From assembly GCA_031416315.1 (NCBI GenBank), contig JANOTL010000134.1, positions 1-23,460 on the forward strand: a stretch of DNA of 23,460 nucleotides. The letters run 5' to 3'. Origin of the DNA: Pseudomonadota bacterium. GTDB taxonomy: Bacteria; Bdellovibrionota_B; Oligoflexia; Oligoflexales; CAIYRB01. The first letter of the stretch is position 1, and the number at the start of each line of letters is the position of its first letter. The notes under the pieces are model-generated. The model was not told the origin of the DNA. It ran no database searches and saw nothing but the letters and a program-made list of their open reading frames with translations. Positions 2,066-22,836 of the stretch are shown here, piece by piece. Both the position numbers and the translations under genes were made by a program.

Positions 2066-2464
2066 TCAATGCAGGCTGGCCAAGACCCGCTCGAGCCTGC
2101 TGTCAGCATCCTCGGCCATTCGGATGAGCGCAGCGTCGCCGACCAATCGCATGAGGGCGGTGGGCTTCGCCAGCTCGACGCTCACTTTGCCACCACCGAC
2201 GTCGCGGACGACTGCGTTACACGGAAGGAGGCTTGCAACGTCGGGATTTGCCGAAAAAGCCTCGAACGCCAGGCCTGGATTGCAGGCACCGAGAATCACG
2301 ACTTCGGGAATTTTTTTGCCAAGCTTCTCGTCGATCTTCGCATGGAGATCGATGCGGCTCAGTACCCCAAAGCCTTCTGCCTTCAGCGCCTGCGTCACTT
2401 GCTCGACCATGGGGCCGACGGTGCCCACGAGTTCTTGCTTTAAATTGATGCTCTCTTTTTGCAT
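2066..2464 (-). CDS. DUF302 domain protein
   Basis: ALKAEGFGVLSRID, ILGACNP and LLPCNAVV motifs. GGAG RBS. Confidence 0.9.
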   Translation of the reverse strand: MQKESINLKQELVGTVGPMVEQVTQALKAEGFGVLSRIDLHAKIDEKLGKKIPEVVILGACNPGLAFEAFSANPDVASLLPCNAVVRDVGGGKVSVELAKPTALMRLVGDAALIRMAEDADSRLERVLASLH

Positions 2465-2502
2465 AGCTAACTCCGCGAATATGAGATCAACACATTGTGT
2501 GA

Positions 2503-2518
2503 AGCACGAACCGTGCCT
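2503..2518 (-). promoter_or_regulatory. Sigma54 (-24/-12) promoter for DUF302-desaturase
   Basis: Minus strand AGGCACGGTTCGTGCT = GG-N10-GC, ~40 nt upstream of the DUF302 ATG. Confidence 0.7.
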
Positions 2519-2537
2519 GCTCTTTCAACCGACCGCA

Positions 2538-3500
2538 TCAAACCATGCGGTATTCCCTAAGTTTTCTCCACAACGTCGACCTGCTCATACCAAGCGCGGC
2601 TGCGGCATCCCCACGCTTGTTCTTTGCCGCGGCCATGGCGTCGACGATGCGCCGATGCTCAAGACCTGCGACGTTGAGCGGGTGTAGCTCGCTGCCCGGC
2701 GGCGGCTCTCCTCTCAACTCTGGGGTGAGGTCTCCGAGGCAAATCCGGTCGCCGTCGCCAATGGCGCAAGCATACTCCAAGACGTTTCGCAGTTCGCGAA
2801 CGTTTCCCGGCCACGAGTAGCTCAACAGAGCGTTCCTCGCCGGGCCCTCCATACCCACGATCCGTCGGTATCCCATCCTTCCGAACTCATCGATGAAGCG
2901 CCAAGTCAGCATCTCGATGTCGCCGTCCCGCTCGGCCAACCGCGGCAGAAATAGCGGGATGACGCGGATTCGGTACATCAAGTCTTCTCGGAAGCGGCCA
3001 AGCTCGACCGCGTGACGAAGCGATTGATGAGTTGCAGAAATGACCCTTACGTTTGCTTTCTTTACGGTGGCGGAGCCGAGCGGTGTAAACGTCCGCTCCT
3101 GCAAGACGCGAAGCAGGCGGGCTTGCACGTCGACCGGGATTTCCGCGATCTCGTCGAGGAAAATCGACCCCGTGTTCGAGAGCTCGAAAAGCCCCTTGCG
3201 GTCGCTCGACGCCCCGGTAAACGCGCCCTTCACGTGACCGAAAAGCTCGGACATCATGAGCTCGGAAGAGAACGTCGCACAGTTAATCGCATAGAAGGGA
3301 CCTTTGCCGCGTCGACTGAGCGCGTGAATGGCCCTCGCCGCGAGCTCCTTGCCCGTTCCTGTATCGCCTCGCATCAAGATCGAAGCCTCAGTCGCCCCGA
3401 CCTTCTTGATAAGCTCGAAGAGTCGAAGCATCTTCTCCGACACCGTCATCATTCCATGGAACTGTGTCGGCTTGATTTCGGGACGCGTGTGGATCTTCAC
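2538..3500 (-). CDS. Sigma54-dependent Fis-family transcriptional activator (AAA+ and HTH only, no N-terminal sensor domain)
   Basis: Walker A GDTGTGKE, ELFGHVKGAFTGA, Walker B FLDEI, FREDLMYRI, WPGNVREL, C-terminal HTH AAAALGMSRSTLWRKL. AAGGGA before GTG. Confidence 0.95.
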   Translation of the reverse strand: MKIHTRPEIKPTQFHGMMTVSEKMLRLFELIKKVGATEASILMRGDTGTGKELAARAIHALSRRGKGPFYAINCATFSSELMMSELFGHVKGAFTGASSDRKGLFELSNTGSIFLDEIAEIPVDVQARLLRVLQERTFTPLGSATVKKANVRVISATHQSLRHAVELGRFREDLMYRIRVIPLFLPRLAERDGDIEMLTWRFIDEFGRMGYRRIVGMEGPARNALLSYSWPGNVRELRNVLEYACAIGDGDRICLGDLTPELRGEPPPGSELHPLNVAGLEHRRIVDAMAAAKNKRGDAAAALGMSRSTLWRKLREYRMV

Positions 3501-3575
3501 GATTGTCCCTTAAACAAGCTTTGCCAGTAGGGCCGGGGCAGCGCGTTCTCTTGTGACATGGGGTTTCTTCCGATC

Positions 3576-4394
3576 TCAGCGAAGAACTTCGATAGCGACG
3601 ATGACACCGGAAAATACCAGAACGAACCACCCGAAAAACGTTTTTACGGCGCCGTCGGAGAGTCGGCGCGCCAGACGAGAGCCAAAGAGCATTCCGGCGA
3701 CGGCCAAAGCGGAAAATCCAAGCATCAGCCTCCAGTCAAAAGAAATGGAGAGTGCCGCAGCGTCCCTTGCAAATCCAAACAGGCTGTTCGCGGCAATGAT
3801 CAAGAGGGAAGTACCTACGGCCGTCTTCATCCGTAGGTGTTCAGAAAGCACGAGTGCTGGGACCAGCATGAAGCCGCCGCCGGCGCCGACAAACCCCGTG
3901 AGAAGGCCGACGGCTGCCCCACGTGCAATTGAGCTAACTACGCTAGAGGGCCGTTTCCTTTCGGACGCGTTGGCAGCGCTGGCGTCGTCCTTAGACTTTA
4001 GAATCATCGTGATGCCGGAGGCGACCATGACCGCGGCGAGAAGAAACATGATCGCTGAGTCTTTCGTCAAGGCGACGCCTCCAGGAAGCGCCAATTCGGT
4101 CGGAAGGCGCGGCAAGACGACGGCCCTAACGGCGTAGATGACGACAAATGCCGGGAGCGCAAATCTCAAAGCGGCCTTGTAATCGATCGACTTCGAGCGA
4201 GCATACTGCACGGATCCGACGGCGCTCGTTAGACCGACGATGAAAAGAGAATACGTCGTCGCTTCGAGGCCCGGAATCGAGAAGGCGTAAACCAGCACCG
4301 GGAGTGCCAGGATGGCGCCCCCCCCTCCGATCACTCCCAGGACCGCGCCGATTGCGAGCGCGGCAGAGTATCCCAGCAAAGCTTGCGCATCCAT
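3576..4394 (-). CDS. Sulfite exporter TauE/SafE family protein
   Basis: GVIGGGGAILALPVLVY and GFVGAGGGFMLVPAL repeats, AVGTSLLII. Start reassigned to ATG 4394, just after the rhodanese stop. Confidence 0.9.
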   Translation of the reverse strand: MDAQALLGYSAALAIGAVLGVIGGGGAILALPVLVYAFSIPGLEATTYSLFIVGLTSAVGSVQYARSKSIDYKAALRFALPAFVVIYAVRAVVLPRLPTELALPGGVALTKDSAIMFLLAAVMVASGITMILKSKDDASAANASERKRPSSVVSSIARGAAVGLLTGFVGAGGGFMLVPALVLSEHLRMKTAVGTSLLIIAANSLFGFARDAAALSISFDWRLMLGFSALAVAGMLFGSRLARRLSDGAVKTFFGWFVLVFSGVIVAIEVLR

Positions 4395-4402
4395 TGAATG
4401 CC

Positions 4403-4735
4403 TCAGCGCTTGACGGTTGGAAGACCGGCCTGTTCCCACGCCATCATCCCGCCCGACACGTTGACCACGTTGTGAAGTCCTTGTGCGTGCATAAGGCGCG
4501 CGGCCTTCAGCGAACGTTGGCCAGAGCGGCAGATCAAGTAGATCGTTTGATCCGCGGGCGAGGCCTTTAGCGCTGATACACCGCTGCGCTCGATTTCACT
4601 TAGCGGCCTATTGACGGCAAAGGGCGCGGACGTCTGTGAGAATTCATCAGGCTCCCGTACATCGATCAGAGCGACGGCGGTTGCTTCTTCCTGCAGGGCG
4701 AAGATCTCTGCGGGGGAAATGGTCTTTACGTCCAC
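4403..4735 (-). CDS. Single-domain cytoplasmic rhodanese (sulfurtransferase)
   Basis: LIDVREPDEF, active-site ICRSGQRS, VSGGMMAW. AGGAG RBS before GTG. Confidence 0.92.
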   Translation of the reverse strand: MDVKTISPAEIFALQEEATAVALIDVREPDEFSQTSAPFAVNRPLSEIERSGVSALKASPADQTIYLICRSGQRSLKAARLMHAQGLHNVVNVSGGMMAWEQAGLPTVKR

Positions 4736-5015
4736 ATTCGTCTCCTGTTTGTGTGTCGTCCCGACCGACGATCCAATATCCGTTCCAATTTCGAGGAACG
4801 AAGCGCGACGTCCGTAAGTGCCAAGATCTCAGAGAAATCGGCGTCTAGGATGGGCGCCAAAGCGTTAGGTCGATGCAGATTGTGCCAAAACGTTGCAACA
4901 TAAGGGGGACATTTCGAAGCAAAGCGCTTGCGAGACCTACTCGCATAGGGCCGCAGAATCGCTAAATACGCAATAAAAATAACTAGTTGGTCTTCTTGGT
5001 GCTGCAGTTCCGTCG

Positions 5016-5032
5016 TTGGCTTAGTCTTTGAT
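5016..5032 (+). promoter_or_regulatory. Probable sigma54 promoter (deviant -12) for the yeeE-yeeE-pdo-rhodanese operon
   Basis: TTGGCTTAGTCTTTGAT = GG-N10-GA, correctly placed ahead of AGGAGG (5045-5050). AT-rich, IHF-like TAACTAGTTG at 4980-4989. Confidence 0.45.
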
Positions 5033-5057
5033 AGATCAGAGCTCAGGAGGCGGCGAA

Positions 5058-5486
5058 ATGATCGACTGGTTTTACGCAATTTTGGGGGGCGTGCTCATCG
5101 GCGGTGGAAGCTCGCTGCTTCTGCTGTTCAAGGGCCGAGTTTTCGGCGTTAGCGGGGTCATCGGTGGAGTGCTTCGTCCAAGGCAAGGCGATGTGCAATG
5201 GCGGCTGGCGGTTCTTTCCGGTCTCGTCGTTGGCGGAGCCATTCTGCGGATGACCAGTGTAGGAGCATTCGATGCATCGTACCCTCGCCCGGCGGTCGTC
5301 GCCGTCGTGGCTGGCCTTCTCGTGGGCTTTGGGACCCGTCTGGGAAACGGATGTACGAGCGGGCACGGAGTGTGCGGCATCAGCCGGTTCTCCGTCAGAT
5401 CGATCGCAGCGACGCTCGTCTTCGTACTTAGCGGCATGCTTACTGCGACCGTGGTCACGCTCGTGACGAGAGGAGGAACTCCATGA
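5058..5486 (+). CDS. YeeE/YedE family sulfur-compound transporter subunit (PmpA-like half)
   Basis: GRVFGVSG and GFGTRLGNGCTSGHGVCGISRFS. Start reassigned to ATG 5058 after AGGAGG. Confidence 0.92.
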   Translation: MIDWFYAILGGVLIGGGSSLLLLFKGRVFGVSGVIGGVLRPRQGDVQWRLAVLSGLVVGGAILRMTSVGAFDASYPRPAVVAVVAGLLVGFGTRLGNGCTSGHGVCGISRFSVRSIAATLVFVLSGMLTATVVTLVTRGGTP

Positions 5487-5956
5487 AGTCCTTCGCTCCG
5501 ACATTTTTTGCCGGCATGCTTTTCTCGCTTGGACTTGGAATCTCCGGGATGACGCGACCCACGAAAGTCCTCGGCTTTCTCGATTTGGCGGGAGCTTGGG
5601 ATCCGTCGCTCGCCTTTGTAATGATCGGGGCGATCGCTACCTACGCGGTATCCTTCTGGTTCATTCGTCGCCGGCAGGCGCCGATCGCTGATACACGCTT
5701 TTTCCTACCCGCGGCGGCACCGATCGATCGCCGCCTGCTCCTTGGCGCTACGGTGTTCGGAGTTGGTTGGGGCCTAGGCGGATACTGCCCCGGTCCCGCA
5801 GTCGCGAGCTTGGCTGGCGGGGGCCACGAGGTTTGGCTCTTCTTCGTTGCCATGCTGGTTGGCATGGCAGCGTTCGCGGCCTGGGAGCGGCGTCGGGAAA
5901 AGGCCGCTGCCGCTCAGGACTCCGAGCGTCCTATGCGATCTAAGCAGGAGGATTGA
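5483..5956 (+). CDS. YeeE/YedE (DUF6691-type) transporter subunit (PmpB-like half)
   Basis: GLGISGMTRPTKVLGFLD, WDPSLAFVM, FGVGWGLGGYCPGP. ATGA overlap with the upstream gene. Confidence 0.9.
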   Translation: MKSFAPTFFAGMLFSLGLGISGMTRPTKVLGFLDLAGAWDPSLAFVMIGAIATYAVSFWFIRRRQAPIADTRFFLPAAAPIDRRLLLGATVFGVGWGLGGYCPGPAVASLAGGGHEVWLFFVAMLVGMAAFAAWERRREKAAAAQDSERPMRSKQED

Positions 5957-5959
5957 TCA

Positions 5960-6841
5960 GTGGAAATTAAAGCCTTCTTCGATAAAGCGACGTCGACTTT
6001 GACCTACGTCGCATACGACGGCGCGAGTCGCGACGCCGTTATCATCGATCCCGTACTCGACTTCGATTCGGCCTCTGGTCGCATGAGTCGATCCTCGGCT
6101 GAGGAAGTCCTCGCATTCGTCCGAGCGACGCGACTAAACGTTCGCATGGTGCTCGAGACGCACGCCCATGCCGACCATCTGTCGAGCTCGCAGATTCTTC
6201 GTGAGGCGCTGCCAGGCGTCACTCTCGCCGTCGGTGAGGGCATTACCGCTGTTCAGCGGCGCTTTAAGCCAGTTTACGGACTACCAGAAAGCTTCCCTAC
6301 CGACGGCTCTCAGTTCGATCGTCTGCTCAAAGCTGGCGAGCTGGTGGAGGCGGGAGCCTTGCGATTCGAGGTGAGGCCGACGCCGGGGCACACCGAAGCG
6401 TGCTCATCCTATCGGTTCGGGGACAACGTCTTTACGGGAGACGCGCTATTCATGCCGGATTATGGGACTGGGCGGTGCGACTTTCCGGGCGGAAGCGCCG
6501 AGAACCTCTTTGCCTCGGTGACTCAGCAGCTATTCACGCTCCCAGGCGAGACACGACTCTTTACGGGACACGACTACCAACCTGGCGGAAGGGGCGTCGA
6601 ATTCGAGTCGAGCGTCGCAGAGCAAAAACACGGGAACGTCCAGCTCAACGCCCAAACGAAGCGCGAAGAGTTCATCGCGTTTCGAAGTCAGCGCGACCAG
6701 ACCTTAGCTGCGCCGAAGCTTCTTCATCCAAGCGTGCAAGTGAACATCGATGGCGGTCGGATTCCGCCGCCAGAGACAAACGGCACTTCGTACGTTAAAG
6801 TTCCCCTTACTTGGGCCACTGCGGCCGACCGAAAGGATTAG
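5960..6841 (+). CDS. MBL-fold persulfide (sulfur) dioxygenase, ETHE1/Blh-type
   Basis: IIDPVLD, LETHAHADHLS, TPGHT, FTGDALFMPDYGTGRCDFPGG, GHDY. AGGAGG before GTG. Confidence 0.92.
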   Translation: MEIKAFFDKATSTLTYVAYDGASRDAVIIDPVLDFDSASGRMSRSSAEEVLAFVRATRLNVRMVLETHAHADHLSSSQILREALPGVTLAVGEGITAVQRRFKPVYGLPESFPTDGSQFDRLLKAGELVEAGALRFEVRPTPGHTEACSSYRFGDNVFTGDALFMPDYGTGRCDFPGGSAENLFASVTQQLFTLPGETRLFTGHDYQPGGRGVEFESSVAEQKHGNVQLNAQTKREEFIAFRSQRDQTLAAPKLLHPSVQVNIDGGRIPPPETNGTSYVKVPLTWATAADRKD

Positions 6842-6844
6842 TCA

Positions 6845-7231
6845 ATGGTCAGATTCTTGCTCGCCGCGATCTTCACTTTGGCTTCGGTGGTGCCGACGAC
6901 GGCCGGCGCCGCGGAGCATACGAGCGATACTGAGGCTACGGTCAAAGATAATCTTTCCACGGGTGCGGCCGTGCTCGTCGATGTTCGCGAAGCCGATGAG
7001 TGGGAAGCTGGACATCTCATCGTCGCAACCAATGTCCCGCTTTCGGAGCTACGGAATGGGGGTGGGAGTGATGGGCTCCCTCGCGACAAGATCCTTTACT
7101 TGCACTGTCAGTCTGGTCGTCGGGTCCTGCCGGCCGCCGACCTGTTGATTGGTTTCGGCTTCCGCGACGTGCGAGCTTTGCCGTGGGGCTTCCCCGAACT
7201 CGTTCGTCGGGGCTTCGCGCAAGCTCCCTAG
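6845..7231 (+). CDS. Exported (periplasmic) rhodanese, PspE-like
   Basis: Signal peptide ending AGA|A. LVDVREADEWEAGH and active-site HCQSGRR. Confidence 0.88.
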   Translation: MVRFLLAAIFTLASVVPTTAGAAEHTSDTEATVKDNLSTGAAVLVDVREADEWEAGHLIVATNVPLSELRNGGGSDGLPRDKILYLHCQSGRRVLPAADLLIGFGFRDVRALPWGFPELVRRGFAQAP

Positions 7232-7323
7232 AATGGAGCTGCGCCACCGCATTTGAACCAAATTTGAGACACCGTTTCGTCCGTCTAGGCCGATGTGGTG
7301 CCGCAAGTTCGACGGTGGCTCGA

Positions 7324-7339
7324 CGGCATGACAATTGCT
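7324..7339 (+). promoter_or_regulatory. Sigma54 (-24/-12) promoter for the CstB-like operon
   Basis: CGGCATGACAATTGCT = GGCA-N6-TTGC (GG-N10-GC), in the 255-bp intergenic gap. Confidence 0.72.
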
Positions 7340-7486
7340 GGTAAGTCCTGAACTCGCGCTCCTGACACGGCTGGCTCTGTTCTTCGTGTCAGGCCTGACC
7401 ACCACCTGGCTTAGCAAGCGTAGCTTATCTCCGGGCACTCGTGTCCGAAGCCATCGGGTCGGCATCGTCTTTGGAGGAAGTGGTCA

Positions 7487-8908
7487 ATGTTTTTTCAACG
7501 GGTAAAAACGCCTGGAATAGCCCACGTGGCTTACGTCATAGGCAACAAGGGCGAAGCCGCAGTCGTCGATCCAAGGCGCGACGTGGACGAGTATCTGCGC
7601 ATAGCGCGCGAAAATAAGCTGACGATCAAATATGTGTTTGAGACCCACCGTCAAGAGGACTTCGTGATCGGCTCGGCGGAGTTGGCACGGATCACGGGCG
7701 CCAAGATCGTCAACGGGCGACACGAGCTCTTTGGCCACGGCGACATTCGATTGAAGGACGGCGAGGAGTTTTCTTTCGGCGAGCTTCGCTTTGTGGCACT
7801 TCACACGCCCGGCCATACCCCCGAAAGCATGTGCTACGCCATTTACATTTCGGACGCGCCCGATAAAGCGTGGGGCGTCTTCACCGGCGATACCTTGTTC
7901 ATTGGCGAGTCCGGGCGAACGGATCTCCCCGACCCGAAAAAAACGGCTGAGAACGCAGGGCACCTCTTCGACGGAGTTCACGAAAAAATCGCCCCTCTCG
8001 GTGATCAGGCACTTCTATTCCCGGCGCACGGATCAGGGTCCGTGTGCGGCGGCAACATTGCAGAACGAGACGACTCCACGATCGGCCTCGAGCGGGGCTA
8101 CAATCCGGTCTTCGTCAAGTCACGTCAGGACTTCATCGCCACGAAGGTCAAAGAGCGCATCCCTCGTCCTCCCTACTTCGCTTTGATGGAGAAGGTGAAT
8201 TTCAAAGGCGGGATCCCAGTCGCGAAGCAGCTGAAAGAAGTGAAGGTTCTGCAACCGAAGTCGTTCGCGAGCGAGAAGGAAGCCGGCGTCGTTATCGACG
8301 CTAGGGAACCGGAGGCTTTTGCGGCAGGACACATTCCCAACTCTTACAGTGTATGGGCCAAGGGCTTATCGGTATTCGGCGGATGGATCGCCGACGAGAA
8401 CACCCGAGTGTATTTAGTCCTTGCACGAATGGATGATCTCGAAGACGCGGTTCTGGCCCTTTCCAGGATTGGCGTCGATGCCGTCGAAGGCGTGCTAGCC
8501 GGAGGCTTTGACGGATGGCGCGACGCCGGGCTCCCGATAGCTACATCCGGCGTGACGACGCCTGAAGGCCTCAAGTCACGTAAGGACGTTCGTGTGCTCG
8601 ATGTGCGTGACGACAGCGAGTTCGAAGTGGAAGGCCACATCCCCGATGCCTCGCACCTTTATGTCGGCTACCTAGAAGAGCACCTTCGGGCCTTGAAACC
8701 ACCGCTCAAGAAATCGGACCGGATCGCCGTCGCGTGCAGCGTCGGACATCGCGCAAGTCTCGCGACGAGCATGCTGCGTCGTCAAGGCTTCGAACACGTC
8801 GAAAACCTCCTTGGTGGCATGACTGCGTGGGAAAAAGTCGGACTTCCGACGAGATCTGGCGCTGAGAACTCCGTAACAACGACAGAGGTCGAAGGAGCGA
8901 GAACATGA
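7487..8908 (+). CDS. MBL-fold persulfide dioxygenase fused to two rhodanese domains (CstB-like)
   Basis: VVDPRRD, ETHRQEDF, HTPGHTPES, FTGDTLFIGESGRTDL, PAHGSGSVCG. Cys-less middle rhodanese domain and catalytic C-terminal rhodanese ACSVGHRA. GGAGG RBS. Confidence 0.9.
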   Translation: MFFQRVKTPGIAHVAYVIGNKGEAAVVDPRRDVDEYLRIARENKLTIKYVFETHRQEDFVIGSAELARITGAKIVNGRHELFGHGDIRLKDGEEFSFGELRFVALHTPGHTPESMCYAIYISDAPDKAWGVFTGDTLFIGESGRTDLPDPKKTAENAGHLFDGVHEKIAPLGDQALLFPAHGSGSVCGGNIAERDDSTIGLERGYNPVFVKSRQDFIATKVKERIPRPPYFALMEKVNFKGGIPVAKQLKEVKVLQPKSFASEKEAGVVIDAREPEAFAAGHIPNSYSVWAKGLSVFGGWIADENTRVYLVLARMDDLEDAVLALSRIGVDAVEGVLAGGFDGWRDAGLPIATSGVTTPEGLKSRKDVRVLDVRDDSEFEVEGHIPDASHLYVGYLEEHLRALKPPLKKSDRIAVACSVGHRASLATSMLRRQGFEHVENLLGGMTAWEKVGLPTRSGAENSVTTTEVEGART

Positions 8909-9441
8909 TGAGCGCTCAAACGCGATCTGGACCGTCGCGGTCCCCGTATGTAGTGGGCGCAGGCCTGGGCATTCTGAATACGCTAGCGTTCCTGACGGCT
9001 AAACGAGGGCTTGGTGTGACTTCGGCCTTTGAAAGCACGGCAGCTTTGGCTGGCCGGAAGGTTGCCCCCGACCTGACGCAGGTCAATAGTTACCTAAAGG
9101 CGCGCGACGAAGCTCCGAAGATTGACTGGGAGACACTTCTCGCAGTGGGACTGCCGATCGGCAGCTTCCTCGCGGCGCGTGCGTCGAGCGAGCCCTGGAG
9201 CGATGACACGTCGCCACAGCGGGCGCAGAGGTTTGGGGCCAACGGCGGCACGAGCCTTGCGGTCTCGTTTCTTGGCGGCGCTCTGATGATGTTTGGGGCG
9301 CGTCTCGCAAAAGGCTGCACGAGCGGGCATGGGATTACGGGTACGAGCCAACTTGCGCTGTCGAGTCTCGTCTTCACGCCGTTGATGTTTGTGACGGCAG
9401 GCATTGCCGTTCGTGCCCTCTACGGACGGGGAGAATCGTAA
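8905..9441 (+). CDS. YeeE/YedE family transporter subunit (second pair, first half)
   Basis: SPYVVGAGLG and FGARLAKGCTSGHGITG. ATGA overlap. Confidence 0.88.
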   Translation: MMSAQTRSGPSRSPYVVGAGLGILNTLAFLTAKRGLGVTSAFESTAALAGRKVAPDLTQVNSYLKARDEAPKIDWETLLAVGLPIGSFLAARASSEPWSDDTSPQRAQRFGANGGTSLAVSFLGGALMMFGARLAKGCTSGHGITGTSQLALSSLVFTPLMFVTAGIAVRALYGRGES

Positions 9442-9953
9442 TGGCAACGTCTCGCGATGGAGGCGGTATGCGCCTCCTTGGACTCATGACCGGGATGGCC
9501 TTCGGCAGCCTCCTCCAGCGAGGCAAGCTGGCACGACAGGACGTCATCATCGATCAATTTGCGCTTCGTGATGCTCGCGTCGTCAAGACCATGGGAACCG
9601 CCGTGGCCGTTGGCGCGGCGGGGATTCACGCGCTTGTGGCGATGGGGCTAACGAAGAAGGACGTAAAACCCATGAAGGTTGGCGGCGTCGCGGGTGGCGC
9701 CGTGCTGTTCGGAGCTGGCCTTGCGCTCTTCGGCTACTGTCCGGGCACTTCCCTCGCAGCCCTAGGAGAAGGCCGGCGCGACGCGATGGCCGGAGTCCTC
9801 GGGATGCTGTTCGGCGCGACCGCTTTCGTACGTCTTTACCCAGCGCTCGTTCCGCTTATCGACGCAGGTGGAGACTTCGGCAAGTTAACGGTCAGGCGTC
9901 GTCTGCTCGAGCGCTCGCAAGCTTCTAACCATGAGCTCGCTCGGGGCTCATGA
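9441..9953 (+). CDS. YeeE/YedE family transporter subunit (second pair, second half)
   Basis: GMAFGSLLQRG and LFGAGLALFGYCPGT. TAATG overlap. Confidence 0.88.
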   Translation: MATSRDGGGMRLLGLMTGMAFGSLLQRGKLARQDVIIDQFALRDARVVKTMGTAVAVGAAGIHALVAMGLTKKDVKPMKVGGVAGGAVLFGAGLALFGYCPGTSLAALGEGRRDAMAGVLGMLFGATAFVRLYPALVPLIDAGGDFGKLTVRRRLLERSQASNHELARGS

Positions 9954-10002: not shown

Positions 10003-14435
<4,433 letters not shown>

Positions 14436-15674
14436 TCAGTGGTCGTGCGTGGCGCCGTTTTTGCCGACGTCGGCCTTCACTACGAAGCTTTTGTCGGCGA
14501 CGTAGGTCATGCCGGGGTCGATTCCCGAGAGCACCTCGACGAACTCGCCGTCATCTCGGCCGAGCTCCAAAGGTCTGATCTCGTACTTGTCGCCGTCCTG
14601 GACAAAGACGACGGTCCAGTCGCGGAAGGTTTGGAGCGCCGCTTTGCGGACCGCCACCTTCGCCTGGACGGTCTCGACTTGTACGGCGCCGTCAACGAAG
14701 AAGCCTGGCGCCATCCCGGGCGTCGACTTGGGTAGGCGCGCACGTACGGCGATGGATTGTGTTTCACTGGAGCCGACCGGCGCGAGATAGTCGATCGCGC
14801 AACTCAACTTCGCATCGCCGCTGCCAGCGAGCTCGATCGGCTGACCGACCGCGAGTCTTGCGAAGTCATGCCGCTCGACGTGAAACTCCGCCATGACCCG
14901 GTCGAGGTTCGAGATCTCGAAGAGCGCGTCCTTCTCCGACACGAAGGCACCGACGCTGATCGCTTTCTTCGTGATCGTTCCTGCGATGGGCGCGGTGAGC
15001 TCGTAAGAGCTTAGGCTTGCGTTGCTCTCGATGACCGCGAGGCGCTCGCCCTTCCTGACCTTGGCGCCCAGCTTGGCGACGACGGCCGTGGCGACGCCGG
15101 GATATCGTGCGCTCACTCGTGCCGTCTCTTCCTCGTCTTGGACGATCTTCCCCAGGACTGGCAAGCGAACCTTGATCTCGGCGGGTCCGGCGCGCTCGAT
15201 GACGATCCCGGCCGCGAGGGCGGCATCCGCGGAGATCACGGTCCTGCCTTCGTAGGAGTCGTAATCCCACGTCGAGCGCTTGCCGCCGCGCTCGGCGGTG
15301 ACCTTGACGTCGAACGAATGCGGTTCCACGATTTCCTGATCGCCGAGGAGATAGTCGTCCTTTTTCGTGAAGCGAACGAGGTCGACCTTGCCGAGGATCC
15401 GCTTCAGCTCGATCTCGAGGTTCACCGTGCTCGGATCTGCCGGTTTGCCCTTGTCGTAAACGTAGACGCGATACTCCGGCGGAACCCCGCGCTCGAAGAT
15501 CGTGACTTCGATGCCGAGGTCACCATCCTGCAACAGGCGGCCGCCGTGCGGCCCTTTGATCGGCTCCGCCGCCTCGACGTTCGCGGCGCTCTCGCCTCGG
15601 GCAACGTCGAGCGTCGACGGCGCGGCGAACGCCAGGAACGCGAGGACGAGTCTTGCGGTGCGAGTCGGGCTCAT
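14436..15674 (-). CDS. czcB: RND efflux periplasmic adaptor subunit, CzcB-like
   Basis: GPHGGRLL, EPHSFDV, biotinyl-lipoyl-like motifs, C-terminal ATHDH. Start reassigned to ATG 15674 (AGGA RBS, signal-like N-terminus). Confidence 0.9.
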   Translation of the reverse strand: MSPTRTARLVLAFLAFAAPSTLDVARGESAANVEAAEPIKGPHGGRLLQDGDLGIEVTIFERGVPPEYRVYVYDKGKPADPSTVNLEIELKRILGKVDLVRFTKKDDYLLGDQEIVEPHSFDVKVTAERGGKRSTWDYDSYEGRTVISADAALAAGIVIERAGPAEIKVRLPVLGKIVQDEEETARVSARYPGVATAVVAKLGAKVRKGERLAVIESNASLSSYELTAPIAGTITKKAISVGAFVSEKDALFEISNLDRVMAEFHVERHDFARLAVGQPIELAGSGDAKLSCAIDYLAPVGSSETQSIAVRARLPKSTPGMAPGFFVDGAVQVETVQAKVAVRKAALQTFRDWTVVFVQDGDKYEIRPLELGRDDGEFVEVLSGIDPGMTYVADKSFVVKADVGKNGATHDH

Positions 15675-15710
15675 TGCGAATCCTGCCGAGGCGGCGGAGG
15701 CCAGCATGGC

Positions 15711-15727
15711 ATCCCCATAGGGGGGAT
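15711..15727. promoter_or_regulatory. RcnR/CsoR-family operator 1 (upstream of czcBAC)
   Basis: ATCCCCATAGGGGGGAT, ~36 nt upstream of the reassigned czcB start. Confidence 0.8.
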
Positions 15728-15873
15728 CGGTGGCAGGCGCCCGGCCTTGAGATAAAGCCTTCAACCGAACGGAAAATGCTTTTCTTTCAAAGGCTTGAAG
15801 ACTCAGTCAGGCGTTCGGCGATCGTATGCTCCGACAAGTCGGCGAGTCGGCGAGTCCGTCACGACGACCGAAA

Positions 15874-15960: not shown

Positions 15961-16335
15961 TTACTTACCGGTATAGTTCACGGCGAGATAGTTCCCCGGA
16001 AGCGAGAAGAACATGTAAAGCGTCTCCTTCGTCTTGTCCGTCGCCTTCGGATCCTTGAAGGTCACGAGCCATTCCTTTTTCTTGCCGAACTCCTTCTGCT
16101 CGGCGTTGTCGGGCGCGATCGCCTTCCAAGTCGCTTCGATTTTCTTGTCGCCGATGAGCTTGTCTCGCATTTTCGTAGCTGATTCTAGGATTTGCTCCTT
16201 CGTCGCAGGCGCTTTCGAATGCGTGTGTCCGGCGTCGCCGTCGGCAAGGACCATCTGCGGCGCGACGGCGACGCCGAGCATGAGTGCGGTGGCGGCTGCG
16301 AGTTGGCGAAGGTTGCTGAGCTTAAAGATTGTCAT
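15961..16335 (-). CDS. DUF6488-like small secreted protein, paralog 1
   Basis: Start reassigned to ATG 16335 (AAGGAG RBS inside the hupE end). Signal peptide, GHTH, C-terminal TLYMFFSLPGNYLAVNYTGK. Confidence 0.8.
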   Translation of the reverse strand: MTIFKLSNLRQLAAATALMLGVAVAPQMVLADGDAGHTHSKAPATKEQILESATKMRDKLIGDKKIEATWKAIAPDNAEQKEFGKKKEWLVTFKDPKATDKTKETLYMFFSLPGNYLAVNYTGK

Positions 16336-17101
16336 GACTGTTCTCCTTGGTTTCTTGTTCGATCTGCATATCCTCGTGGACATGCTTGTGCTCGGTCACG
16401 GGAAAGGCCAGGTCATCGGGCATCATGGAATGGAGGTAGCCGTGCGTCTGCATGTAGAACAATGCGAACCCGGCGAGGATTAGGCCATTGTTCGCCAGCC
16501 GGCTGATCCGCTCGAAGCGGTCCGTCTTCCGCCAGGCGGCGAGCGCCGCGACCATCACGACGAGCGCCGCGATCTGTCCCACCTCGACGCCGACGTTGAA
16601 CGACAGGATTCGGAACAGCATCCCGAGCTTGTCGTCGCCTAGCGGCAACTGTTGGAGACGCGTCGAGAGGCCAAAGCCGTGGATTAGGCCGAACAGAAAT
16701 ACAGCGAGCAAAAGGTTCGGAGATCTCCGGCCGAGGTACTTCTCGAAGCCGCCGTTGTTGTCGAAGCCCTTGTAGCAGACGCTCAAGGCGATAACGGCGT
16801 CGATCAGGAAGTAGTTGGCGTTGATCTTAAAAAAGGTAGCGAACACCAACGTGATGCAGTGGCCGAGCGTAAAGACGCTCACGAATTTCGCGACTTCTCG
16901 GAAAGTCTTGAGGAAGAACACGACCCCGAACAGGAACAGCAGGTGGTCGTATCCGGTGAGCATATGCGTCGCGCCGAGCCCGACGTATTGTAAGTATCCG
17001 CCTTCAATCATGCGCTGCTTGTCAGCTTCCGAGATCCCGTGCGCCATCGCCGGGTTCGAAAGCATGAACAGCAGCAGGGACATGGTGAGTCGCCTCGCCA
17101 T
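16322..17101 (-). CDS. HupE/UreJ family (HupE_UreJ_2-type) metal-binding membrane protein, paralog 1
   Basis: AMA|HGIS, HMLTGYDHLLFL, FTLGHCITL, FGLIHGFGLS, FNVGVEVGQ, His-rich tail. AGGAGG RBS. Confidence 0.92.
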   Translation of the reverse strand: MARRLTMSLLLFMLSNPAMAHGISEADKQRMIEGGYLQYVGLGATHMLTGYDHLLFLFGVVFFLKTFREVAKFVSVFTLGHCITLVFATFFKINANYFLIDAVIALSVCYKGFDNNGGFEKYLGRRSPNLLLAVFLFGLIHGFGLSTRLQQLPLGDDKLGMLFRILSFNVGVEVGQIAALVVMVAALAAWRKTDRFERISRLANNGLILAGFALFYMQTHGYLHSMMPDDLAFPVTEHKHVHEDMQIEQETKENSHDNL

Positions 17102-17175
17102 CCTGGAGCCTCCTAGAGCGTGATTTCTCGATTACCCGCGCGGTAACGAGCTCACGCCCTCGGTGGACGAAGAAT
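17100..17175 (-). promoter_or_regulatory. RBS-sequestering mRNA hairpin formed by the 3' end of the upstream ORF and the hupE translation-initiation region
   Basis: AGGGCGUGA (17160-17152) pairs with UCACGCUCU (17123-17115). CCACCG (17166-17161) pairs 4/6 with SD AGGAGG (17114-17109). Apical stem CUCG-UUACC/GGUAA-CGAG (17150-17127). Confidence 0.7.
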
Positions 17176-17469
17176 TCCTTCGCCGCAAAGCTGCTTCGGC
17201 TGCTGGAGCGTATCGATGGCCACGCCCGCGTAGGGAGGGGCTTCGAGTGCGGCGGTCACAAACGGCGCCCGAGCACCGAAGCTCATCGGCGCCTCAGGAT
17301 GCTTGTGGGTCGGCGGCGTATGCTCGCGGCAGTCGTCGCCGCCCGTCAAGCATTCGTGCTCGTGTTCGGACGACGCAAACAGCTCTTCGCCAGCGTGATC
17401 GAGCGCGTGCAGGTTCCACGTGCCCGGAAGCCACGCGAAGCAGACGATTATTATGAGCAAGCGCATCAT
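17152..17469 (-). CDS. His/Cys-rich exported upstream ORF ending in RPPRA (CzcI/DUF2946-like architecture, candidate arrest peptide)
   Basis: Hydrophobic N-terminus, HEHECLTGGDDCREHTPPTHKH, C-terminal ILRPPRA. Directly downstream of a near-consensus promoter. Confidence 0.75.
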   Translation of the reverse strand: MMRLLIIIVCFAWLPGTWNLHALDHAGEELFASSEHEHECLTGGDDCREHTPPTHKHPEAPMSFGARAPFVTAALEAPPYAGVAIDTLQQPKQLCGEGILRPPRA

Positions 17470-17477
17470 CGGCGAAG

Positions 17478-17518
17478 ATCGTAACGAGGCTGACGTTTGC
17501 CGTCAACAACGTTACGCT
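17478..17518. promoter_or_regulatory. Overlapping divergent sigma70 promoters forming a dyad
   Basis: Minus: TTGACG (17506-17501)-N17-TACGAT (17483-17478). Plus: CTGACG (17490-17495)-N17-TACGCT (17513-17518). Confidence 0.72.
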
Positions 17519-17547
17519 TTCGCTAACTCGGAGAGGCGCGCCACGAG

Positions 17548-17895
17548 ATGAGATTCACGATCAGCACCGTCGTCGCTCTGTTCGCATTGAGCGTGACACC
17601 GGACTCAGTCGCGCATCCGGGCCACGACGTCGAGGGTCCGACGGTCTCGGACACTGTGCTCAAGGATCGCGCGCGAGGCGTCGTCGCGAAACTGATTGCT
17701 GCCGGAGAGCTCGACTCGGGATGGCGGGGGCTCACGGCAGATGACCCGCTCGCGGAAGACCTCGGGGGCGTGCGTTGTTGGATGTTGAAGGTTCGCAACC
17801 CGCAAGCAGCGTCCGATGAGCGGAAGACGCTGTACGTCTTTCTTGCCGAGTCGGGAAGTGTCTTGGGGGCCAACTTCAAAGGGCCGGCCGAGTGA
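17548..17895 (+). CDS. DUF6488-like small secreted protein, paralog 2
   Basis: Signal peptide SVA|HPGHD; C-terminal TLYVFLAESGSVLGANFKG. Confidence 0.78.
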   Translation: MRFTISTVVALFALSVTPDSVAHPGHDVEGPTVSDTVLKDRARGVVAKLIAAGELDSGWRGLTADDPLAEDLGGVRCWMLKVRNPQAASDERKTLYVFLAESGSVLGANFKGPAE

Positions 17896-17928
17896 GTATT
17901 GGGGCAGCTGAGGCTGCGTCGCCATTGA

Positions 17929-17958
17929 TTGACGAAGTCCTCCCCCCGGGGATAGGCT
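17929..17958 (+). promoter_or_regulatory. Sigma70 promoter with embedded operator 2 (autoregulation of the repressor operon)
   Basis: TTGACG (17929-17934)-N18-TAGGCT (17953-17958), containing GTCCTCCCCCCGGGGAT (17937-17953). Confidence 0.8.
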
Positions 17959-17988
17959 CTAGCCAATCCTAGCCGACCCGGAGCTCCG

Positions 17989-18270
17989 ATGGCGCACGTC
18001 CATTCCACCCATCCGCAGGTGCTTCTTCGCCTCAAGCGCGCTTACGGCCATTTGGCGCGCGTGATCGAGATGATCGAAGAAGAGAAGGACTGTCTTCTCG
18101 TTGCGCAGCAGCTTCAAGCCGTGAACTCGGCGATCGGGAACGCCAAGACCGTCCTTGTCCAGGATCACATCGAGCATTGCCTCCAGAGCGCGATGGACAA
18201 TTCCGCGGGTGACCGTGACGCGCTGCGGAAGCATTTGCGCGGGTTCAAGGAAATCGCTCGTTACCTCTAG
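17989..18270 (+). CDS. RcnR/CsoR-family metal-sensing repressor, NreA/NcrB/InrS-like
   Basis: RLKRAYGHL, C35 in DCLLVAQQL, H60 and C64 in DHIEHC, N-terminal H3/H5/H8 (H-C-H-C fingerprint). Confidence 0.93.
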   Translation: MAHVHSTHPQVLLRLKRAYGHLARVIEMIEEEKDCLLVAQQLQAVNSAIGNAKTVLVQDHIEHCLQSAMDNSAGDRDALRKHLRGFKEIARYL

Positions 18271-18310
18271 TCTAGTCGAACGTGGATCCATTTGAAGGCG
18301 AGTCCTGCTG

Positions 18311-19099
18311 ATGTCGCGTTTAGCGCTTTTTCTCGCAAGCTTTCTCATGGCGACCCCGGCCTGGGCGCATGGCATCTCCGAGGCCGACAAAGAGGCCATG
18401 CTCGACGGAGGCTACGCCAAGTACCTCTGGCTCGGCGCCAAGCACATGCTCACGGGCTACGACCACCTGCTGTTCATCTTTGGGGTCATCTTCTTCCTCA
18501 CGCGCTTCAAGGACGTCCTGAAGTTCATCACGGCGTTCACCGTGGGTCACAGCATCACGCTCATCTTCGCGACGATCTTCAAGATCAACGCGAACTATTA
18601 CCTGATCGACGCCGCAATCGCCTTGAGCGTCTGTTACAAGGCTTTCGACAACAACGATGGCTTCTCGCGCTACCTAGGGATCAAATCACCGAATCTCTTG
18701 GCGGTGATCTTCCTCTTCGGTTTGATCCACGGCTTCGGCCTGTCGACGAGACTCCAGCAGCTGCCGCTCGGCGACGACATGACCGGCATCGTCACGCGCA
18801 TCATCTCGTTCAACGTCGGAGTCGAGCTCGGCCAGATCATCGCCTTGTCGATCATGGTCGCGATCTTGTCACAGTGGCGCCAGCGGGAGGCGTTCACTCG
18901 CTTCAGCCGCGTGTCGAATGATGCGCTGATGGCCGCCGGAGTCGTTCTGTTCCTGATGCAGCTCCATGGCTATTCGCACACGACCTCCCCGGATGACTTC
19001 GGCTTCGCCGAGGACAACCATGCCCATGCGCACGAGGCCGAGGCCAAGGCAGCTGCCGAACGTGCGAAAAAAGCAGTTCCCGACAACATCCTAGATTGA
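18311..19099 (+). CDS. HupE/UreJ family membrane protein, paralog 2
   Basis: AWA|HGISEADK, HMLTGYDHLLFI, FTVGHSITL, FGLIHGFGLS, HAHAH tail. Highly similar to 16322-17101. Confidence 0.92.
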   Translation: MSRLALFLASFLMATPAWAHGISEADKEAMLDGGYAKYLWLGAKHMLTGYDHLLFIFGVIFFLTRFKDVLKFITAFTVGHSITLIFATIFKINANYYLIDAAIALSVCYKAFDNNDGFSRYLGIKSPNLLAVIFLFGLIHGFGLSTRLQQLPLGDDMTGIVTRIISFNVGVELGQIIALSIMVAILSQWRQREAFTRFSRVSNDALMAAGVVLFLMQLHGYSHTTSPDDFGFAEDNHAHAHEAEAKAAAERAKKAVPDNILD

Positions 19100-19112
19100 G
19101 GACGCCAAAAGA

Positions 19113-19463
19113 ATGGTCCGCTTCCTAAAGCTTCTCGCGTTCGTGGCCGCGTTCGGCGTCGTTTCCCTTGCTTCGGCCCATCCCGGTGGCCACTTCATGC
19201 CGGCAGGCCCCCCGGTTTCGGAGGACGGCATGCGCAACCGCGCTCCCGAGATGCTCGCCAAGCTTGTCGAAGTCGGGAAGCTCGATGCGAGCTGGAAGGG
19301 CGCCGCTCTAAAGACGCTCGAGCAGAAGACCGTGGGCGAAGAAGGCTCAGGGTGGGTCGTATCCTTCTTCAACGCCACGGAGAAGGACAAGGCAAAGCAG
19401 ACAGCCTACCTCTTCTTCACCTTGTCGGGCGAACTCGTCGGCGCGAACTTCAAGGGACTCTGA
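19113..19463 (+). CDS. DUF6488-like small secreted protein, paralog 3
   Basis: ASA|HPGGHF; KLDASWKG; TAYLFFTLSGELVGANFKG. Confidence 0.82.
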   Translation: MVRFLKLLAFVAAFGVVSLASAHPGGHFMPAGPPVSEDGMRNRAPEMLAKLVEVGKLDASWKGAALKTLEQKTVGEEGSGWVVSFFNATEKDKAKQTAYLFFTLSGELVGANFKGL

Positions 19464-19820
19464 TCACTTGCCCGTGTGGTTGGCGCCGAGGGGCTGGCCG
19501 TCGATCGAGAAGAAGAAGTAGACGGTCGCCTTTTCCTTGTCGGTCGCCTGCGGATTCTTGACCGACACGATCCAGCCTTCGCCGCCGCCGACGTCGGTCT
19601 TCACCGGCTCCGACGTCGGTAGCCCCTTCCAAGTCTCGTCGAGCTTTTTCCGCTCGACCAGCGTGCTCAGGACGTCGGCGGCCCGAACCTTGATGTCCTC
19701 CGGCTTCGCTGGCGGTCCGAAGCTGTGCCCGCCGGGATGCGCGAACGCGCTCGCGCCCCCAAGCCAGCACACGGCGAGAAGGAGACGCAGATTCGACGCC
19801 TTGGCGAGGTTCCCGAGCAT
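19464..19820 (-). CDS. DUF6488-like small secreted protein, paralog 4
   Basis: AFA|HPGGHS; KLDETWKG; TVYFFFSIDGQPLGANHTGK. Confidence 0.8.
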   Translation of the reverse strand: MLGNLAKASNLRLLLAVCWLGGASAFAHPGGHSFGPPAKPEDIKVRAADVLSTLVERKKLDETWKGLPTSEPVKTDVGGGEGWIVSVKNPQATDKEKATVYFFFSIDGQPLGANHTGK

Positions 19821-21525: not shown

Positions 21526-22836
21526 ATGAGCGATCCCTCCCGTCGCATATTGTTGAGCCGATTGCTGACACACAGTGGCGATCAGGCTTGGGACTTCGCG
21601 TTACCGCTAGCGCTGATCCAAGTTTTCCCGGGCGCGATCGGGCTCGTCTCGCTTTTCTACTTCGTCGTGCGCCTGCTCCACACGATTCTGGTGACGCCGG
21701 TGTGCAGCTTGATCGATCGCGTCGATCGGAGGACGGCCGTCCGACTCGGAGTCGGGGCTCAGACGTTCGGAATCGTGCTGGCCGTCGCCTGTGTTCTGAG
21801 TCTGGCATATCTGCGGCCGGGCGCTGCGCCGTGGGGATCTCCGACGACCAGCTTGCTCTTCATCGGCGCGATGGCCGCTGGCGTCATCGCGTCCCTCGGT
21901 GGCACGATGATGGACGTCGCGATCTCTCAGGACTGGCTCCCTCATGTAGTCCCGCGCGAGCGGTTGGCTGCGACGAACAGTCGTTTGAAGCAGATCGATC
22001 TCGCCACAGAGGTGTCCGCGCCCGTCGTCGCTGGTCTGCTCTTCGCCCTGAGCTTGGATAGCGTTCCACTCTTTGGGTTCTTGCTCGTTGCAGCGTGGAA
22101 CGTCGTCTCGTTTCTTCCCGAGCTCGCGTTGCTCGAGAGCGTCCTCGGCTCAAACGCCGCGCTGCGGAAACCCGCGCCAGCGCCGCAGGCGCGGCAGTCC
22201 GTCCTCGACAGGCTGAGCGCAGGTTGGCGGGATTTCGTGGCGCAGCCCGCTGCCCTGTCGATGATTGCCTATGCCCTCCTTTGGTTGACAGTCTTGAGTC
22301 CGCACGGAGTGCTCTTGACGGCTTGGCTTCGCTCGCAAGGTCACCTCTCGGAGGCCGGAGTCGGAATCTTCCGTGGCCTTGGGGCGCTTTTCGGGCTCGT
22401 CGCGACGGTGGTCTTCCCCTGGCTTCTGGCCCGAACGTCGCTCGTGTCTGCGAGTCGCGCGCTGATCGTTTTCGAGGCGGCCTGCGTCCTGGGCGCAGCG
22501 GCGGCTTACGCTTCCGGCGCGAGTTTCGCAGTCGCCTTCCTCGGCCTTGTGCTGTTGTCGCGCATAGGGCTATACGGTTTCTCGTTGGGCGAGACTGAAA
22601 TCCGCCAAGTTACGATCGATCCCGCTGTCCGCGGGCGCGTGAATGGTTTCGCGAACGCGTTGACGAGCATCGCGACTCTCGGACTTTACGGCGCTGGGGC
22701 GGCGCTCGAAGGGCCGGAGCAGTTCGGTTACCTTGTCTACGGCTCGGCTGCGTGCGTGACGGCTGGCGCCGTCGTGTTCGTTGCGTGGTCTGCGACCGTC
22801 GCGCGGAAGTCTCCGGAGCTGAAATGCGCGTCCTGA
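21526..22836 (+). CDS. Bacterial ferroportin (FPN1/SLC40-like MFS divalent-metal exporter)
   Basis: SRLLTHSGDQAWDF, QDWLP, NSRLKQIDLATEVSAP, WNVVSFLPE, VLSPHGVLL, LSRIGLYGF. These closely follow Bdellovibrio bacteriovorus BbFPN as recalled. Confidence 0.9.
   Translation: MSDPSRRILLSRLLTHSGDQAWDFALPLALIQVFPGAIGLVSLFYFVVRLLHTILVTPVCSLIDRVDRRTAVRLGVGAQTFGIVLAVACVLSLAYLRPGAAPWGSPTTSLLFIGAMAAGVIASLGGTMMDVAISQDWLPHVVPRERLAATNSRLKQIDLATEVSAPVVAGLLFALSLDSVPLFGFLLVAAWNVVSFLPELALLESVLGSNAALRKPAPAPQARQSVLDRLSAGWRDFVAQPAALSMIAYALLWLTVLSPHGVLLTAWLRSQGHLSEAGVGIFRGLGALFGLVATVVFPWLLARTSLVSASRALIVFEAACVLGAAAAYASGASFAVAFLGLVLLSRIGLYGFSLGETEIRQVTIDPAVRGRVNGFANALTSIATLGLYGAGAALEGPEQFGYLVYGSAACVTAGAVVFVAWSATVARKSPELKCAS

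Follow-up and report, generated by a model that had tools for sequence, protein, structure and literature searches.

A histidine-rich exported leader ending in Arg-Pro-Pro as a putative CutF-type stall switch ahead of hupE

Does the small open reading frame (ORF) that precedes hupE in this DNA encode a regulatory leader peptide, and might a ribosome pausing near its end expose the hupE initiation region when a metal is in excess? We examined this question in a stretch of 23,460 nucleotides, called the window throughout, that comes from a genome with a GC content of 64.9%. The genes that matter for the argument, and the parts of the leader, are as follows.

17152..17469, minus strand: leader ORF of 105 aa with CutF/CruR-like architecture, ATG at 17469, ending GEGILRPPRA before the stop
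17404..17469, minus strand: signal-peptide-like N-terminus (residues 1-22), from hydropathy; cleavage after LHA is an estimate
17299..17364, minus strand: His/Cys cluster H36-H57 (HEHEC-x6-C..H..THKH), its final His 45 residues ahead of Pro-Pro (family median, 51)
17161..17178, minus strand: predicted pause site at the motif G-I-L-R-P-P, which reads G-[PLI]-[LFY]-R-P-P in the family consensus
16322..17101, minus strand: hupE, a HupE_UreJ_2 (PF13795) membrane protein of 259 aa (E 3.3e-50); predicted regulated gene
15961..16335, minus strand: DUF6488 protein (domain scan), overlapping the hupE stop; it follows hupE in 83/91 leader loci
10003..15764, minus strand: set of a CzcB-like adaptor, a CusA/CzcA-family pump and an outer-membrane factor that begins about 200 nt past DUF6488 on the same strand; possibly a shared transcript
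17548..19463, plus strand: divergent arm (domain scans) with DUF6488, a CsoR/RcnR-family repressor (H3-C35-H60-C64), a second hupE without a leader, and DUF6488
21526..22836, plus strand: ferroportin (PF06963), from a domain scan

The initial annotation described a 105-aa ORF ending ILRPPRA, with an export-signal-like N-terminus and a His/Cys cluster, and all three elements are present as stated at 17469-17152 (-). The hydrophobic N-terminus reaches a 9-residue hydropathy of 2.7-3.1, the cluster holds seven His/Cys residues (H36, H38, C40, C47, H50, H55, and H57), the Pro-Pro is P102-P103 of the 105 residues, and 50 nt separate the leader stop from the hupE start. By sequence the ORF is isolated: a scan against Pfam and NCBIfam assigned it to no family, and phmmer found no homologue, one search returning only the leader itself and another four long repeat-rich proteins that were judged spurious. 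The DNA contigs searched contained no diverged copy of the leader; a single 270-nt contig (run X2) matches positions 16945-17214 without a difference. By model features, and for the last three not by alignment, the closest named Atlas clusters are DUF2946, CzcI (PF28244 in Atlas), DUF6769, and DUF6660; an Atlas structure search for L082 gave TM <= 0.31 and no fold was assigned. According to the accessible text of PMC9973294, CzcI is a small protein encoded upstream of czcCBA, and the CzcI of C. metallidurans has no proline motif. A filter for signal, His/Cys, and motif was passed by 4/40,270 frames in the window's genome, and the window leader, whose downstream ORF is the one that was scanned, is the only one of these seen ahead of a recognised metal gene. 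The reverse strand across the leader also has a stop-free frame.

Because the window leader has no direct homologue, hupE loci were gathered irrespective of what lies upstream. Of 269 collected, 266 match hupE, and the removal of 19 (no start or <450 nt upstream) left 247 HupE_UreJ_2 loci; these include duplicates, the same record reached by two routes, and the leader-bearing loci among them represent 127 distinct junctions. A leader was called where a His-rich ORF ending [LFIVMY][RKQ]PP lies within 400 nt of hupE, a rule that was widened once, after YRPP ends appeared, by admitting Y and requiring 5 His. Such a leader was found at 146/247 hupE loci compared with 9/5,456 random control windows. 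It is present at 49/79 loci from the GTDB scan, 37/67 from metagenomes, 41/58 from the class of G132 (Bacteriovoracaceae/Bdellovibrio records), 13/17 from the family of G133, 4/20 from the window's class, 1/3 from plasmids (Sulfurospirillum, L189), and 1/3 from the window's genome. Profiles from which the last 20 residues had been removed, which make the check non-circular, match 145 loci, and 145/145 end in the motif. At the level of sequence, motif and architecture are conserved across several bacterial classes.

The initial annotation had asked whether the RPP end is kept at homologous junctions, and it is: among the 127 distinct leaders, the residues before the retained Pro-Pro include Arg in 120, written with all six Arg codons across the family, Leu/Phe/Tyr in 127, and Gly in 75, and the stop follows 2-4 codons past Pro-Pro in 108. 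The homologous leaders carry 8-18 His compared with 7 in the window leader. In 23/23 usable homologue pairs dN is below dS (median, 0.15), a comparison in which picking pairs by protein identity biases dN downward, and the substitution pattern indicates that these leaders are under purifying selection. A profile built from 53 other leaders at full length ranked the window ORF first among 67,846 frames (E 0.017), and the core of the window leader does not match the family core profiles (E 0.02-0.09); layout, motif, and position place the ORF in the leader family without a core-sequence match. Taken with the anti-Shine-Dalgarno (anti-SD) register described below, the homologues lend good support to the leader-peptide reading through motif, position, and purifying selection, and the window feature is most likely a regulatory leader peptide.

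Several observations were made on the operons themselves. At loci without a leader, hupE is often internal to an operon, with CzcA upstream in 21/81, and the first gene of one such operon (L190) is a small ORF whose product ends GRAPPLHA. An EamA/DMT transporter is the usual third gene of betaproteobacterial leader-hupE-DUF6488 operons (EamA in 20/50 proteins scanned, of 102 candidates), and at L015:5080-6159 and L018:5119-6168 this protein has a long His-rich tail; identification of the His-tailed gene with CnrT was set aside, as the 11 plasmid hits include no CnrT-annotated record. In many short-gap operons (defined below) the third gene encodes a conserved 112-aa membrane protein with weak matches to NCBIfam PRK09272 (L082:5092-5427, L191, L198, L200-L204, L206, L218, and L220). 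The window has its ferroportin near hupE, and a similar ORF lies divergent from leader-hupE at L197, L209, and L214.

What the leader might do to hupE depends on the RNA at the junction, for which folding predicts three elements.

17152..17163, minus strand: 5' arm of the masking helix as predicted, made up of CC from the second Pro followed by the Arg-Ala-stop codons
17127..17150, minus strand: apical 9-bp hairpin
17109..17123, minus strand: 3' arm (17123-17115) and the hupE Shine-Dalgarno (SD) sequence AGGAGG (17114-17109)

The fold of the minus-strand junction that the initial annotation had called for beats dinucleotide shuffles (z = -2.70, 3/200). Its proposed 9/9 pairing of the Arg-Ala-stop codons with the segment 5' of the SD was reproduced, AGGGCGUGA (17160-17152) pairing with UCACGCUCU (17123-17115) at probabilities of 0.86-1.0 in the context of the whole leader; an in-register 9/9 match arose in 27/200,000 spacer shuffles. 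The 9-bp apical stem is likewise predicted, at 17150-17127. The proposed 4/6 pairing of the Pro-Pro codons with AGGAGG held in part, in that the geometry exists and the CC of the second Pro pairs at 0.84-0.85, but the CC of the first Pro does so only at 0.02-0.06. Pairing of AUUCU with AGGAU over the hupE start was given a probability of 0.0, AUUCU being held in a local hairpin. To speak of a lock on the hupE ribosome-binding site was thus an overstatement: the strong helix takes in two G's of the SD and the 9 nt on its 5' side.

We then asked of a model, in which everything up to the leading edge of the ribosome is kept unpaired, what it costs to open the 30S footprint on hupE. The cost is 25.2 kcal/mol without a ribosome on the leader and 25.9-26.8 kcal/mol, hence no relief, with a ribosome 5 or 10 codons upstream; it is 18.4-18.9 kcal/mol with Pro in the P site and 16.3-17.2 kcal/mol with the ribosome at the leader stop. 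The cost at Pro-Pro is still high because the first hupE codons stay folded. In this model, the window stem opens only when a ribosome reaches the end of the ORF; a terminating ribosome melts it at least as well as one at Pro-Pro, so that a stall cannot be deduced from the fold by itself. Synonymous recodings of the leader end reach the native pairing in 49/300 cases, so that codon choice in the window is not significant by itself, and among chimeras carrying leader ends from other loci 0/80 attain the native pairing and 15/80 the native relief.

By the distance from Pro-Pro to AUG, the junctions fall into 45 short-gap (<=70 nt), 9 mid-gap, and 73 long-gap cases, and 36/45 short-gap loci belong to one class. 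An SD-like site is present at 42/45 short-gap loci, where the Pro-Pro codons oppose it as CCUCC:GGAGG. CCU encodes the first Pro at 35/45 short-gap loci compared with 108/310 (35%) Pro codons elsewhere in these genes; CCU is used for 17/45 second Pro codons at short-gap loci and for 17/73 first Pro codons at long-gap loci. This codon usage points to the Pro-Pro codons themselves as the anti-SD of short-gap loci. Covariation at homologous junctions, another test that the initial annotation had suggested, gave a mixed answer. The second-Pro wobble and the base 5' of GGAG form Watson-Crick pairs in 21/40 loci (expected, 14.0; p 0.006), this being one of 12 positions tested with 5 short-gap loci lacking GGAG excluded, and slid registers were not significant in the same test. 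With relatives collapsed at 80% identity the excess persists (18.5/33 against 11.6 expected; median p 0.004), and at 70% identity it is 12.4/22 against 8.8 expected (p 0.078). The tree-aware version, which initially rested on just 2 supported pairs, has 8 supported pairs, 4.1 the same way against 0.1 the other, and is not significant (median p 0.125). The anti-SD covariation in short-gap loci is therefore no more than suggestive. The window stem lies in the short-gap register of the family and carries its 9-bp extension in place of the wobble pairs, both of which are lost because its Pro codons are CCA CCG.

SD pairing did not prove to be a general feature. Relief of more than 2 kcal/mol is predicted at 11/17 short-gap compared with 7/64 long-gap junctions, leaving 57/64 of the latter without it, and an SD-like site is found in only 13/73 long-gap loci, which keep the motif nonetheless. 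Persistence of the motif at long-gap junctions that lack the pairing argues for selection on the peptide itself and for a further read-out. A Rho read-out was considered and not established: C exceeds G in the 60 nt past the stop in 57/73 long-gap loci, but the intergenic C/G of 1.21 is close to the 1.17 of hupE itself. At the mid-gap loci L162, L173, L187, L134, and L084, the anti-SD has moved to the last codons and the stop (CCUUUGA against UCAAAGG), a third geometry.

Upstream of the leader, two further features concern its transcription.

17478..17506, minus strand: sigma70-like promoter TTGACG-17-TACGAT, its -10 ending 8 nt before the leader ATG; 1 site compared with 0.5 +/- 0.8 in shuffles, not significant alone
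17480..17516, no strand assigned: imperfect inverted repeat of 37 bp with 16-nt arms and a 5-nt gap, a possible operator; 9/1000 shuffles score as well

The spacing of this promoter predicts that the window leader mRNA is leaderless or almost so, and the family behaves similarly. With leader starts picked from the hydrophobic core, blind to promoters, and 8/127 without a usable start left out, 95/119 leaders have a -10-like hexamer 4-9 nt upstream of the start (peak, 6-8 nt), compared with 5/119 in the same test ahead of hupE and 198/3,649 long ORFs in the window's genome; an SD precedes only 3/119 leaders. The 95/119 leaders thus look leaderless, and a leaderless start may be a family trait. 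Across the window's genome, -10-like hexamers peak 6 nt before ATG (91/7,746 starts, against about 12 at other spacings), and therefore a few per cent of its genes are likely leaderless. The inverted repeat lies between the divergent genes and spans both hexamers (-35 and -10) of the promoter predicted for the leader.

The rest of the window and its genome offer observations of their own. At 17989-19099 (+), a hupE paralogue lies behind a CsoR/RcnR gene with an InrS-like H-C-H-C fingerprint, so that one genome seems to control one hupE copy by a repressor and the other by a leader peptide. The same CsoR/RcnR-hupE order recurs in the same family at L098, there preceded by a perfect palindrome of C/G-tract type; in the window, a C/G-tract operator ahead of the rcnR-like gene was not above shuffles, the best palindrome being matched by 160/1000. 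Four DUF6488 genes lie within 4 kb (15961-19820), three of them encoding His straight after the predicted signal, and the window HupE starts His-Gly past its signal; DUF6488 was named in no paper found by the literature search. A third hupE copy (L002; G000:C111:4129-4848, -, in the window's genome) has a leader-like signal, WIPATW (window, WLPGTW), fused in frame near codon 45, without the His cluster, RPP, hairpin, SD, or hupE's own N-terminus, and its divergent ferroportin copy carries an in-frame stop; the fusion may be a natural deletion of the switch, decay, or mis-assembly. On the same contig, a 138-aa ORF (G000:C111:9301-9717, +) with a signal-like start and a His cluster but no Pro-Pro is the first of a series that continues with a His-rich gene and a CzcB/CzcA-like pair, and may be another type of leader. 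The ORFs at 2066-9953 of the window, named from their translations, we take to be sulfur-handling-like (rhodanese, metallo-beta-lactamase fold, YeeE/YedE, TauE, and a sigma-54 activator).

How does the leader relate to described nascent-chain sensors? In the accessible text of its descriptions, CutF of Rhodobacter capsulatus (PMC9973294; bioRxiv 10.1101/2025.02.05.636593) is likewise an exported nascent sensor with a Pro-rich end and a stem-loop that hides the next SD and is opened by stalling. CutF combines CxxxC and copper with a PPP motif (PEPEGPPPRL), an intergenic stem-loop, and a multicopper oxidase target, whereas the hupE leaders have a His cluster, [LFY]RPP, and, at short-gap loci, Pro codons that themselves form the anti-SD. 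As in CutF, a stem-loop shielding the downstream SD is predicted within reach of a stalled ribosome in the window. [quoted passage not shown] The accessible text of that paper holds no motif, RNA structure, or experiment for the His-only clusters. Its proteins, like our leaders, are <150 aa, His-rich, and directly upstream of HupE/UreJ, with a signal (signal-like by hydropathy in the window leader) and Pro-Pro near the C terminus, and most homologous leaders found here are probably clusters 14/17. The window leader fits the published filters in length (105 aa), in Pro-Pro within the last 15 residues, and in its gene neighbour (hupE 50 nt downstream), but its metal motif is not His-only, since C40 and C47 lie inside the cluster, unlike most homologues, which lack cluster Cys.

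CruR/DUF2946 (PF11162; PMC9426467, as far as its accessible text goes) resembles the hupE leaders as the first gene of a metal operon with a signal and a metal motif at a set distance from a Pro-Pro end, and the long-gap leaders resemble its betaproteobacterial homologues in gap length. CruR differs in CXXC and RAPP, Rho-dependent termination, metal that turns expression off, and a 45-nt 5' UTR. The window ORF has no PF11162 match at E <= 1, no match in its genome exceeds the gathering cut-off, 5/22 homologous leaders match below the cut-off only, and the cysteines are spaced C40-x6-C47 rather than CXXC. ApcA, ApdA, ApdP, and SecM, in the available portion of PMC12992588, are likewise small exported ORFs that precede a regulated gene and have Arg and Pro-Pro close to their end; in RAPP arrest, Arg two residues before the P-site Pro is irreplaceable. 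The hupE leaders, unlike RAPP/RGPP peptides, have Arg directly before Pro-Pro. With L-R-P-P in the window and RxPP in 0/127 leaders, membership of the RAPP group was rejected, and the RAPP-type likeness of the leader end drawn by the initial annotation does not hold. LRPP is undocumented as an arrest motif in the accessible text of arrest-peptide papers including PMC10987492 and PMC12992588, and in the literature searched, mostly without subscription papers, we came across neither an experiment on a hupE leader nor an arrest motif LRPP nor any mention of a leaderless start.

Our results lead us to propose, with moderate confidence, that the leader is a cis-acting CutF-type peptide in which a pause at RPP melts the hupE hairpin and metal on the His cluster prolongs the pause, turning hupE-DUF6488 on. 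Transcription would start at or beside the leader AUG, and the signal would bring the nascent chain to SecYEG. The distance of about 51 residues (45 in the window) between cluster and Pro-Pro is about the length of the ribosome tunnel plus the translocon, so that the His cluster, some 45-66 residues back, would be just across the membrane and newly periplasmic when Pro-Pro occupies the P and A sites. The pause would be of the di-proline type as in CutF, probably EF-P sensitive, and not of the RAPP type. Excess Ni, Co, or Zn would prolong it, and the paused ribosome would cover the 5' arm and lower the cost of loading a 30S subunit on hupE by about 7 kcal/mol. Long-gap homologues, with the same peptide, would require a different read-out, for which termination of transcription, as known from CruR, is a possibility.

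Of the two directions of the response, metal-on is the likelier, a judgement that comes from neighbouring genes only: the hupE paralogue behind a CsoR/RcnR repressor, the RND pump downstream, and, at L189, a divergent Ni/Co exporter and repressor. The CsoR/RcnR family consists of metal-dependent de-repressors (PMC4235346, accessible text). The same switch could run with the opposite sign, by CruR logic (PMC9426467), a default stall keeping hupE on until metal folds the chain, frees the stall, and lets the hairpin re-form, as would suit an uptake gene that is used when metal is scarce. HupE/UreJ-2 proteins have indeed been proposed as metal-uptake permeases (PMC12537917, in the part available), which weighs against metal-on, and the RNA evidence says nothing on direction; the excess-metal neighbours, namely, the pump, CzcA upstream of no-leader hupE, the paralogue behind a de-repressor, and ferroportin, speak against this sign. 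We consider it somewhat unlikely, and grant it that much because the InrS-type fingerprint does not predict the metal and HupE/UreJ-2 is a proposed importer.

The other readings question the stall, the signal, or the leader itself. A small exported metal-binding protein with plain translational coupling, its Pro-Pro a by-product of the CCUCC anti-SD, would account for the real CCU bias in short-gap loci and for the nearness of the stop, as a terminating ribosome opens the stem. This is unlikely, given that 73 long-gap leaders keep the motif, only 13 of them with an SD-like site and none of the CCU enrichment, that Arg, the hydrophobic -2 residue, and the Gly at -4 fall beyond the paired segment and show synonymous variation, and that 0/145 core-profile matches lack the motif. 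A stalling switch of the SecM kind might instead sense export capacity or EF-P status. The signal and C-terminal prolines reproduce the SecM/Apd layout (PMC12992588), loss of EF-P mimics copper for CutF (bioRxiv 10.1101/2025.02.05.636593, in the accessible text), and EF-P is encoded in the window's genome; yet the many His at a conserved distance from Pro-Pro and downstream genes for metal rather than sec functions make this improbable. That 65% GC DNA produced the window ORF and its hairpin by chance, in a form that resembles the family, would fit the want of a homologue, the frequency with which synonymous recoding equals the stem, and the stop-free frame on the opposite strand. So few genome frames pass the filter, one of them 50 nt before hupE, and the stem register, Pro-Pro-to-AUG distance, and -10 spacing fit the family so well that we hold chance to be very improbable.

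For copper, sensing of a metal by a nascent peptide is established in CruR (PMC9426467) and CutF (PMC9973294), as the accessible texts describe. To these our findings add a non-RAPP motif, a doubly coded anti-SD in short-gap loci, and a predicted leaderless start, and they make the published Ni/Co prediction testable through a defined motif, an anti-SD register for which nature offers compensatory variants, and non-pathogenic carriers in culture, among them Acidovorax temperans DSM 7270 (L018) and Hydrogenophaga flava NBRC 102514 (L050), both of the long-gap type. Many hupE leaders have no Pfam match and are thus easily missed in annotation. We tentatively suggest, as a possibility for the family as a whole, that widespread leaderless exported peptides sense periplasmic nickel, cobalt, or zinc through a His cluster and stall at [LFY]-Arg-Pro-Pro, the two Pro codons doubling as the hupE anti-SD in one branch and another read-out serving in the other. 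The leader bears on the role of HupE_UreJ_2 and DUF6488: if this picture is true, no nascent-chain sensor for a metal other than copper would have been demonstrated before it, and HupE_UreJ_2-DUF6488 would be a metal-excess module and not an importer.
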